Positions 58,075 to 60,526 of a DNA stretch of 64,000 bases are shown one piece after another. The DNA lies in sequence record PP554575, one strand, 5' to 3'. Both the position numbers and the translations under genes were made by a program. How positions within the stretch are numbered: the stretch's first letter is position 1; every line of letters starts with the position of its first letter. The stretch comes from Escherichia phage PMBT16. The notes below the pieces were generated by a model. The model was not told the origin of the DNA. It saw nothing but the letters and a program-made list of their open reading frames with translations, and searched no databases.

Positions 58075-60526
58075 CACACCACAAACGGCCCCGCCTGACA
58101 AGTGGAATAACCAACAAGCCAGCAATTGCCCACACTGTACAAACATACAGGTAAAAATAACTATTGCATAATCTTTCATCTTGTGGTAGCAGGGCCATTT
58201 TTACCCGTTTTCTCCCTCAAAATTGCACGTAATGCCGCTATTGCACAAATTTTAACCTGATGCAGATCTTCAATATCTTGTCAACAAATAAAAATTCTTA
58301 TAAGTCATACACTTACATAACCACAAAAGCGCGTTCTACGTGAAAAATCGAGTATAACTATAGCCGCCAGATCTCAGAATTTACGTACGCTTACCATTCT
58401 ATAGTCTGCTAAGTATTTATTCCAACCACAGAATAACGGAATAGTCAATACCTGCATAAAATAATTATTCGTGTAAACTGCATAACATAAATCAGCTCAG
58501 GTGTCAACATTTTTCGTAAACAGTCCGAAATTATCACGATGAGTTATCATAAACAGAGAAATCTTTAGTCGTCTAATGTTTACTGTACATTACTATACTG
58601 ACTGGAATCATTAGATGACTAAGAGAAAGATAAGAAATAATTAATAATGTAATTATTTTACCTGTAACAATAAGGCAACTATGCAAACGAATGGCATGGC
58701 GCGACGGAGTCGCGACATAATATAAAAGCAGTAACCATCACCCCCGTGATAGTTTGTCTGCAAACTATTAATCAGATCATAGTTGCCTTGTATTTAGTTA
58801 ATCATGACATAACAAGCAAGGCAACTATAGATCTGCTAATAGTTGCCCTGCTTTTATATTATGTCATAGGAACGCCCGAAGGGGTGACCTAGTCACCTGG
58901 CATAGCCAGCGAAAGATTATTAACTTGTCGATTGTTATCTTGTTAATTGTTTTCATGCAAACGAATGGCATGGCTTATCATCTATGCGTGAACAGTGAGG
59001 CATGCAATAGTAACAATTGTTATTGTATCCAGTGTGTTGAGTATGCCCAGTGTGTCACTATTATGTCATATTATGTCACAGTATGTCAGACAAGTTTTTC
59101 TCCTCTTTGTCAAGTGCTGCATGAAAAATTTACAAACTGGTATGGTAGCATTTTTGCGGCCCTGTTTACATTCAGTAATGTATGTATAATCCTTGTTGTG
59201 TGGGCGTTTAGACGTCTAGACGGTTGGAAGTCCACAGGTCAATATCTAATCTATCGGCTGCTAACTATATCCCACACAAATAGTAAGAAATATGATTGTT
59301 ATATGCGTAAACTGTAACTCATGTTATCAATCCCTGTATGGATCGCCAGTGGTGCGCATAATGGGTATTATGTTAAATTGCCCGTAATGATAAAGGTTCT
59401 CACAATGATAGGTATTCTCATTCACCCTCACAAAATAGATTGCAAATGTTGTGCCACTGTGTGAACGGCCTCACCTATTAATTTGCCTCACTGCCTCGAT
59501 ATTTGAGAATTATTATAAGAATGAGAAGTATTCCCATTCCGTCCGCCTGGCAGCACTCCAGTCGCTACCGCTCATGACAGGGCAGAACTGGGTCCATTCA
59601 GATATTTCTGACTGACTCTTCAGGTCTGTGTGGGAAAAGACAACCTCTCCGGCGGGACAGGGGGATATCTGAGGAGAAATTGCAGGTCAATTAAAAAATT
59701 TACGTGGTGTATGAAGCGATCTTCAGGCAAGGTATGTATTATGGGATGAAACCCTCTTCAGGCAATGATATTTGTGGGTGTGATATTTGCTGGAAAGCCA
59801 GATATGACGGGACTCCCGGCGGGGCAGGGGTAGTACAGACAGGGAAAATATGGGGATGTAGTTGGGTAAATTGATCAGACAGGTAGAGTATGGAATATGT
59901 TACAAGTATGTTAAATATGGAGGGTGAATATCTGTAGGATTTGTGTGTAAAATCAAAGACTTAAGCGGTGCTGTGGTATTTTCTATAAATAATTCAAGTT
60001 TAATAGGTGATATTTGTCTCTATCCACTTTGTGTGGTAAACAGATTCAGATGATATTGGTTTACAAGTGTATACATAATATACAAATTAAAGATACAAGA
60101 AACCCCCCTCCCCCCTTCGGCTACCATTCACCTTTTCCTCTGACTGGTACTTAAACACTTATTCAGACTCTTCAGGTTATCACCCATATACCATATGGCA
60201 GTGACTGGTGTCCTCCGGCCCCTCTTTCGTCACCCGTCCGCTTCGCCATGCTAATGCCATAGCCAATGGTTCGGTTGTTCACCCTGTTCACTCAGGTGTA
60301 TCTCCATACCCCTTCAAACCGAAGAGAACAGAAAACCCGAATTACTCGGTAAAAGAAAAGAGAAGAACTTAATTTTATCAGGATAGGCAAGAATGTCAAG
60401 GCATGACTGCTCACCAAACAAGCAAACAGTCATGTGTGGGAGGTAAGTGATTGTGGTGGTAGGAAATTTAGTTGAAAGATGTGTTATAGGTGCTCCCAGC
60501 ACTTTAGCCGGGTAGCTAATTGTGTG
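58075..60526. other. Repeat-rich non-coding region of about 2.4 kb (candidate packaging, origin or regulatory region, or ncRNA locus)
   Basis: No credible ORF with RBS; AAGGCAACTAT and its reverse complement twice each within 58670-58850; TGCAAACGAATGGCATGGC twice; CTCTTCAGG five times; TCCGGCGGGRCAGGGG twice. Confidence 0.5.

Follow-up and report, generated by a model that had tools for sequence, protein, structure and literature searches.

We report that the gene-free gap at positions 58019-60526 of the window, i.e. the whole 64,000-nucleotide stretch of the Escherichia phage PMBT16 genome analysed here (sequence record PP554575), is, judged by homology, very probably the concatemer-junction and terminal-repeat region of the Vequintavirus genome. 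Specifically, homology shows that the 459 bp at 59089-59547 correspond to a direct terminal repeat (DTR), of which the linear virion DNA would carry one copy at each end. A preliminary description of this region, made from the letters alone, had listed terminase recognition and packaging, and a terminal-repeat boundary, among several candidate roles; both boundaries of the repeat of this genus, 59088/59089 and 59547/59548, fall inside the interval it described, which supports both proposals. The comparison with related genomes that it had recommended recovered the 459-bp repeat and shared record ends at this locus.

The direct terminal repeat and its boundaries

The window derives from a Vequintavirus, i.e. 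an rV5-like Escherichia coli myophage of ~137 kb: 121 phage records match the ~2.6-kb region at 88-95% identity, and those whose taxonomy was checked all belong to Vequintavirus. The segment 59089-59547 aligns without gaps to the terminal repeats of Gotham (94.6%) and HdK5 (93.5%), and a similarity search with it returned two copies from each of these genomes. Gotham is annotated with a repeat_region at 1-459 and 136567-137025, the two copies being identical, and the ends of the HdK5 record are identical to each other over exactly 459 bp. For Gotham, a molecule of 137,025 bp with 459-bp terminal repeats and a single specific packaging start has been described, while the other three phages of that study, unlike Gotham, lacked a region of twofold coverage (Dias et al. 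2020, PMC7471380); terminal redundancies of 458 bp have been reported for EdH4 and HdK5 (Korf et al. 2019, PMC6563267).

Moreover, at least eight GenBank records, originating from several laboratories, begin or finish exactly at the boundaries of the DTR. It constitutes the first 459 bases of Gotham, HdK5, bov10K2, bov22_2, Pr121LW and EcoIv14a_Aya and the last 459 bases of ECP2303, and the YN3 record stops at the left boundary; in the initial similarity search several records broke inside the region, three of them at one base. That eight independent records share the two boundary bases is indirect evidence for fixed, non-permuted and sequence-specific termini. By homology, position 59089 is the first base of the mature left end (5'-GACAAG...) and position 59547 the last base of the mature right end (...CCGTCCGCC-3'). 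The repeat is single and internal in the window since the assembly runs through the concatemer junction, and because transcription of the gene blocks on both sides runs toward the ends, the repeat is accompanied at each end by ~1 kb of gene-free DNA.

The anatomy of the region (Table 1) was derived from an alignment of 15 phages (the window and 14 relatives) with an indel cut-off of at least 15 bp. No indel of this size was detected within the DTR in the 14 relatives, whereas its flanks are indel hot spots and constitute the most variable DNA of the region. On the left, the short-repeat array abutting the boundary varies in copy number, length and sequence between relatives and includes four TRTGTCA units (at 59051, 59062, 59072 and 59082; spacing 11, 10 and 10 bp), the last of which ends at the left cut; these four copies lie within 38 bp, compared with 24 scattered on both strands of the 64 kb. 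On the right, a short conserved stretch precedes the variable spacer. The boundaries themselves carry one short motif, TGYCA/GRC (the slash marks the cut), on opposite strands, i.e. in inverted orientation, and the two exceptions among the right-hand motifs are TGCCT in rV5 and TGCTA in Mangalyan.

From this arrangement we infer that packaging is T7-like, with nicks on opposite strands followed by strand displacement. The terminase would recognise the junction within replicated concatemers and would cut or nick at the two TGYCA/GRC sites, which are separated by 459 bp; the left boundary would be cut in the top strand and the right one in the bottom strand. Duplication of the repeat by strand-displacement synthesis would then provide each packaged genome with a full copy. 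For positioning the terminase, the best candidate appears to be the TRTGTCA array, which is helically phased and terminates at the left cut. Among the annotated genes of relatives examined across the span of the window, no terminase gene was seen.

The CM1 record (Shigella phage, MK962749.1, ~4000-5100) contains a 521-bp tandem duplication equivalent to window positions 59027-59547, giving two copies of the terminal repeat, each with a TRTGTCA array ahead of it. This duplication could be genuine or could have arisen artificially in assembling the genome ends.

Table 1. Features of the gene-free gap and its borders (positions are those of the window; a slash within a motif marks the cut)
Feature	Positions	Strand	Remarks
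DTR, 459 bp, GACAAG...CCGTCCGCC	59089-59547		homology to the Gotham and HdK5 terminal repeats
Left cut-site motif TGTCA/GAC, cut 59088/59089	59084-59091	+	identical in 15/15 phages
Right cut-site motif, bottom strand TGCCA/GGC, cut 59548/59547	59545-59552	-	identical in 13/15 phages
Hypervariable short-repeat array (GTRAACAGT-like and TRTGTCA units) abutting the left boundary	58985-59088	+	15-phage alignment
Conserved stretch TGGCAGCACTC, few single substitutions	59548-59558		precedes the spacer
Indel-rich hypervariable spacer outside the right boundary	59559-59600		15-phage alignment
Highly conserved non-coding block, Vequintavirus-specific	60096-60495	-	near-invariant in 15 phages
Predicted strong sigma-70 promoter, TTGACA / 16-nt spacer / TG-extended TAAAAT	60372-60399	-	11/12 matches
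C6TC6 tract CCCCCCTCCCCCC (G6AG6 in the - strand transcript)	60103-60115		sole C6 runs of the 64 kb
AT-rich stretch (60060-60089, 83% A+T)	60060-60095		directly downstream (- strand sense) of the G-rich tract
Conserved module with CTCTTCAGG, CCGGCGGGRCAGGGG and TGATATTTG motifs	59600-59850	+	59750-59850 ~98% conserved
Cassette, 274 bp	58681-58954		bounded by the 20-nt direct repeat ATGCAAACGAATGGCATGGC
Long nested palindrome	58714-58865		outer arms 18 nt, perfect, GACATAATATAAAAGCAG / CTGCTTTTATATTATGTC; four GGCAACTAT form inner stems
Terminator-like hairpin followed by TTTTATATTAT	58814-58853	+	within the nested palindrome
Terminator-like hairpin followed by ACTGCTTTTA	58754-58733	-	within the nested palindrome
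Inverted repeat, 16-nt arms CTTTAGTCGTCTAATG / CATTAGATGACTAAGA, 14/16 complementary	58563-58624		stretch 94-96% conserved
Last + strand gene	57755-58018	+	87-aa product
Intrinsic terminator closing the + strand gene block	58038-58054	+	hairpin plus T-run
First (3'-most) gene of the - strand block, right edge of the non-coding region	60527-60742	-	intact in 14/14, with Shine-Dalgarno

The conserved block and its predicted promoter

The 400-bp block to the right of the repeat is 96-99.5% identical in 118 records, compared with 88-95% for the region as a whole. No other 400-bp segment in the early/replication half of the window (36 kb, scanned with four diverged relatives) is as well conserved as the block (top 1.6%), which also holds the longest invariant run of that half. 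The block has no counterpart in 5,426 E. coli genomes, and outside the genus none was found among 50,697 phage records at E<=1; an exact 20-mer from it matched one IMG/VR contig only. No conserved coding frame emerged from the comparison with the 14 relatives.

The predicted sigma-70 promoter within the block (60399-60372 in the direction of transcription) is aimed at the DTR with no conserved open reading frame (ORF) behind it, and the only changes in the panel are single substitutions in CM1 (-35 hexamer) and rV5 (spacer). A transcript from it would cross the G6AG6 sequence ~250 nt downstream, and then the 83% A+T stretch, toward the repeat. The former corresponds to the C-rich tract noted earlier at 60105, which was confirmed; its length differs by one C among the relatives. 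Near-consensus sigma-70 promoters (at least 11/12 matches) number 14 in the window, the block promoter among them. Nine of the 14 are + strand promoters of the region of small genes between 33 and 52 kb (33000-52000), which is consistent with a host-polymerase early class, and elsewhere on the - strand such promoters are found at 6975-7003, 14756-14784 and 17206-17234.

The block promoter would drive an early, non-coding transcript by the host RNA polymerase toward the junction, similar to T7 phiOR, and we conjecture that this transcript may serve replication initiation or junction processing. By analogy with T7 phiOR and with R-loop-primed origins, the block might act as a functional partner of the DTR, the sigma-70 transcript from ~60365 either priming replication via an R-loop or being required for loading of the terminase at the junction, a proposal that we put forward as possible though doubtful. 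If true, it would represent a sigma-70-driven counterpart of the T7 phiOR/concatemer-junction pause mechanism in a large myovirus without its own RNA polymerase (none is annotated in the relatives' stretches examined).

Narrower, and in our view unlikely, is the proposal that the block, in addition to what the DTR explains, is a transcription-primed (R-loop type) origin of replication. Here the transcript from the promoter would form a G6AG6 hybrid on the C-rich template, the AT-rich stretch would open, and the polymerase and primase-helicase would load. Consistent with this, the promoter is strong and near-invariant with no conserved gene behind it, the C6TC6 tract is unique in the 64 kb and is followed by the 83% A+T stretch, the block is conserved at the nucleotide level without a coding or RNA-fold signal, and a T7-like DNA polymerase and a primase-helicase are encoded according to the rV5 annotation. 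The layout resembles those of ColE1 RNA II, mitochondrial LSP-CSBII and the T7 origins associated with phiOL/phiOR. However, the case is one of architecture and analogy, the length of the G-tract differs between relatives, and the sister genus does without the block, its DTR being flanked there by only ~334 bp. Moreover, the shifts in GC skew at this locus fall where the direction of transcription changes, a point also made by the rV5 authors (PMC3606486). No transcriptome data for Vequintavirus were found in the literature.

The palindromic cassette, the conserved module and competing explanations

To the left of the repeat, the cassette is flanked by two copies of ATGCAAACGAATGGCATGGC (58681-58700 and 58955-58974). 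FV3 has a single copy and lacks the cassette; since FV3 is viable without it the cassette is dispensable, and since it is not essential it is neither an essential packaging site nor the only origin. Four of the five exact GGCAACTAT copies of the 64 kb fall in 58674-58847 (~170 bp). The sequence 58660-58975 folds far better than shuffles (z = -8.3 on the + strand and -7.4 on the - strand), and because the cassette folds equally well on both strands it is likely to be a DNA-level palindrome or to represent terminators. The Murica and Alma records annotate a terminator in the nested-palindrome stretch, and the simplest reading is that the cassette is probably a two-way transcription terminator/insulator next to the repeat.

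Several elements on this side had been listed before, and they are real with some corrections. A repeat and its reverse complement, said to occur twice each, correspond to AAGGCAACTAT, which is exact at 58672 and 58818; its reverse complement is exact at 58779 and matches at only 10 of 11 positions at 58839. The 19-nt direct repeat placed at 58681 and 58959 is 20 nt long, the 19-mer starting at 58682 and 58956, and the 14-bp inverted repeat given at 58564 and 58610 is present at 58563 and 58609, with the longer, imperfect arms shown in Table 1.

On the opposite side of the DTR, the conserved module contains three copies of CTCTTCAGG (59616, 59719 with one mismatch, and 59754), two G-rich CCGGCGGGRCAGGGG motifs (59649 and 59816) and TGATATTTG repeats. 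In total, the window has five copies of CTCTTCAGG, where 0.55 are expected, and none of 100 shuffles reached five; four of them are located between 59616 and 60824, all on the + strand. Exact + strand copies are found at 59616, 59754, 60168 and 60816, and at 59719 the window reads ATCTTCAGG where all 14 relatives have GCTCTTCAGG. Of the five motifs listed earlier for 59612-60822, four thus hold as exact + strand CTCTTCAGG, the one at 59719 being ATCTTCAGG, and the copy at 60816 lies outside the interval 58075-60526 given for the region; the two GC-rich motifs were recovered as CCGGCGGGRCAGGGG at corrected positions. While all the motifs listed in the preliminary description exist, the repeat itself, the phased TRTGTCA array and the 400-bp block had escaped it. 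As a promoter element CTCTTCAGG was dropped, the five copies showing by eye no consistent -10 hexamer or spacing on either strand. The copy at 60816 is followed by TGTGTGGG at 60850, in the 60743-60863 gap between two - strand genes, outside the non-coding region proper, and the same pairing recurs at 59616-59634. Similar types of motifs beside the repeat of the Klebsiella phage KPP-1 (see below) hint that the module may have a shared protein-binding function.

Could structured non-coding RNA, encoded for example by the cassette or the block, rather than the DNA ends be the main function of the region? This had been among the earlier suggestions, and the folding of the cassette and the strong promoter at the head of a conserved non-coding stretch would fit. 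We nevertheless find it distinctly unlikely: folding on both strands is typical of a DNA palindrome, the cassette is missing in FV3, and on neither strand does the block fold better than shuffled sequence (z = -0.8 and -0.2). The covariance-model search that had been suggested (Rfam 15, 57000-62000, E<=1) gave no relevant match, its lone hit being a eukaryotic small nucleolar RNA (E = 0.32) outside the region, and neither tRNA nor transfer-messenger RNA genes were detected in the whole window. Substitutions in the cassette are too few for a covariation test, leaving covariation undetectable.

With respect to packaging, a pac site for headful packaging would entail a single imprecise initiating cut, processive filling, and terminally redundant, partly permuted genomes, in agreement with PhageTerm-based reports on Vequintavirus that describe 'circular permutated' genomes (the bov phages) or headful/PAC packaging (BpE1AUH). 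We rejected this explanation as very improbable. The exact 459-bp repeat is found at both ends of two independent records (Gotham and HdK5), the same two boundaries recur to the base in eight records of several laboratories, a later version of the bov10K2 record opens at the DTR boundary, and one specific start was common to all virions according to Dias et al. (PMC7471380). Furthermore, headful redundancy would amount to kilobases in a 137-kb genome, whereas here it is 459 bp, or 0.3% of the genome. Cohesive-end (cos) packaging was likewise rejected, because the ends of the relatives carry a 459-bp duplex repeat.

The concatemer-junction interpretation has to be weighed against a number of observations. 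The two PhageTerm-based reports disagree with fixed termini, and the termini of the present phage are assigned by 93-99% homology. With 15 occurrences in the 64 kb, the short TGYCA/GRC motif cannot specify cutting alone. The block is absent from the sister genus, and in a control covering the 64 kb with three relatives it is not the single most conserved segment, ranking fifth among distinct regions (top 7%). The idea that it is the most conserved DNA of the genome, which is true for the 36-kb half only, was consequently dropped; it is conserved as strongly as the best structural genes, not uniquely so.

That the region instead hides small protein-coding genes, as annotated in some GenBank records, is highly improbable. 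Short coding sequences (CDSs) have been placed here in several records (CM1_00155/156, Murica150, Gotham F10B_0172 and many in Mangalyan), but these calls differ from record to record, and the core of the region is unannotated in rV5, FV3, PDX and phita32; in rV5 the gap between the gene blocks is empty too. Of the ORFs of at least 30 aa, 27 overlap 58019-60526; none of these 27 has a convincing Shine-Dalgarno sequence and most are broken in most of the 14 relatives, whereas the three flanking real genes are intact in all 14. The few ORFs left intact in the relatives are situated in near-invariant DNA, without third-position bias in the substitutions. The earlier statement that no ORF with a ribosome-binding site is visible thus stands, and the search for conserved protein-coding genes, the discovery of which would have contradicted it, yielded none that was convincing in the 14-relative comparison. 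Finally, a partition site, raised earlier as a 'partition-like site', or a plasmid-like origin of the iteron type with GGCAACTAT as its repeat unit can be dismissed: the four copies within 170 bp form two inverted pairs that make up hairpin stems, not same-orientation iterons, the cassette that carries them is missing from the viable FV3, neither a Par nor a Rep gene has been annotated in the vicinity, and rV5 has been described as lytic.

Genomic setting, related systems and significance

The gap sits between converging gene blocks, the + strand genes stopping at 58018 and the - strand genes at 60527. In nine of the 14 panel phages a 559-bp gene cassette (rV5 ORF164, 139 aa; rV5 piece coordinates 1666-2085) is inserted at 58043; the window lacks it, as do Alma, HdK5, Gotham, FV3 and APCEc02, and the breakpoint lies inside the hairpin of the 58038-58054 terminator. 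Product labels for ORF164 differ, e.g. 'Rel homology domain' in Murica and 'DNA translocase' in B9-1. The 87-aa product of 57755-58018 is labelled 'DNA translocase FtsK' in several records (navn, APCEc02, B9-1), which is implausible at such a size, and the label appears to have been copied on from one record. The DNA polymerase gene is also annotated unevenly: as a single 2778-nt CDS in B9-1 (9990-12767) and ECP32, as a 2430-nt CDS beside an HNH homing endonuclease in FV3 (region 25352-28422), and as a 2328-nt CDS plus a small 'DNA polymerase' fragment in rV5 (region 38432-41383), which suggests a homing-endonuclease or intron polymorphism. Among the database matches, 19 'Campylobacter phage' records (MG065635-MG065690; host Campylobacter jejuni) match the E. 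coli Vequintavirus region at 88-96% and are of the same sequence type, and these look mislabelled or derived from contaminating coliphage.

The phages Gotham, HdK5 and EdH4 (PMC7471380, PMC6563267) have the same 459-bp sequence (93-95%, gapless), with the same boundaries and the same place between converging blocks. There is no difference in kind, the repeat in the window being single and internal, and the papers give the repeat length only and leave the flanks undescribed. In the rV5 paper this same locus, a 2.6-kb interval flanked by ORF164 and ORF163 in which no ORF was called, is drawn as a grey 'non-coding' box, without comment or explanation and with terminal repeats unmentioned (Kropinski et al. 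2013, PMC3606486, Figure 2). The window lacks ORF164, so its gap begins one gene earlier than that of rV5.

The T7 junction, described by Dunn and Studier in 1983, reportedly comprises a 160-bp terminal repeat, the flanking short-repeat arrays SRL and SRR, and the promoters phiOL and phiOR. The region studied here shares with T7 a short exact DTR, adjoining short-repeat arrays and fixed sequence-specific ends, and the DNA polymerase and primase-helicase are likewise of T7 type; the predicted promoter near one end may, in addition, drive transcription outward across the repeat. It differs in belonging to a 137-kb myovirus, in having a predicted host sigma-70 outward promoter, a repeat of 459 rather than 160 bp and ~1 kb of gene-free DNA on each side, and in lacking sequence similarity. 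In T5, a non-coding and repeat-rich region, the 'injection stop signal', lies inside a ~10-kb, gene-containing terminal repeat. A large gene-free stretch rich in repeats and palindromes near the genome end of a lytic coliphage is common to both, but the present repeat is 459 bp as opposed to ~10 kb with genes, and there is no sequence similarity.

For KPP-1 (Klebsiella phage; Mydovirus, Vequintavirinae) a 514-bp DTR, backed by twofold read coverage and PhageTerm, has been reported (PMC9862379). It is also located within a convergent gene-free gap (piece coordinates 3017-3530) and is distantly homologous, collinear anchors being located around positions 36-38 and 280-290 in the two repeats. The repeat ends are homologous to those of the window, with TTCTC..TTGTCAAG near one end and YGTCCGYC at the other, and the boundaries, which were set independently, read TGCTA/GAC and TGCTA/AAC (TGCTA/RAC) with the same inverted symmetry. 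Beside the KPP-1 repeat are CTTCAG..TGTGTG, TGATATTT and G-run motifs, and one exact CCTGAAGAG is found inside it. The similarity is weak and patchy, the block-side flank is short (~334 bp, as noted above), and neither the 400-bp block nor the palindromic cassette has a counterpart. An upstream promoter-like ATCTTGTCAA..AAATAAAAAT element (58284-58305 in the window) is also found in KPP-1. The regulator gene at 62124-62429, a conserved neighbour, was dropped as an anchor for the equivalent region in other genera since synteny is not kept, its KPP-1 counterpart lying 35 kb from the DTR.

The core of our finding is already known from the gene-free box (2013), the 458/459-bp repeat (2019, 2020) and the GenBank records placing the repeat here. 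The inverted cut-site motif and the phased array at the cut appear to be undescribed in the papers that were searched, as do the contrast between the indel-free repeat and its hypervariable flanks, the dispensable palindromic cassette and the promoter-bearing block; this fine anatomy is useful detail of a known type of element, not a new type.

For annotation, the region is to be understood as the place where the genome physically starts and ends; in most Vequintavirus records the sequence is opened at another point, and the gap is either left without explanation or filled with spurious small CDSs. Given that rV5-like phages are common candidates for therapy and biocontrol, knowledge of the termini and of the dispensable cassettes (the 274-bp cassette and ORF164) aids genome engineering, and exact termini are also useful for assembly quality control and the design of packaging-based vectors. 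The inverted TGYCA/GRC at both boundaries provides a directly testable model of how the repeat may be duplicated. Finally, the conserved block, with its predicted outward early promoter, is the one part of the region worth an experiment, being a target for understanding how a large myovirus with T7-like replication proteins may start replication or process its junctions.

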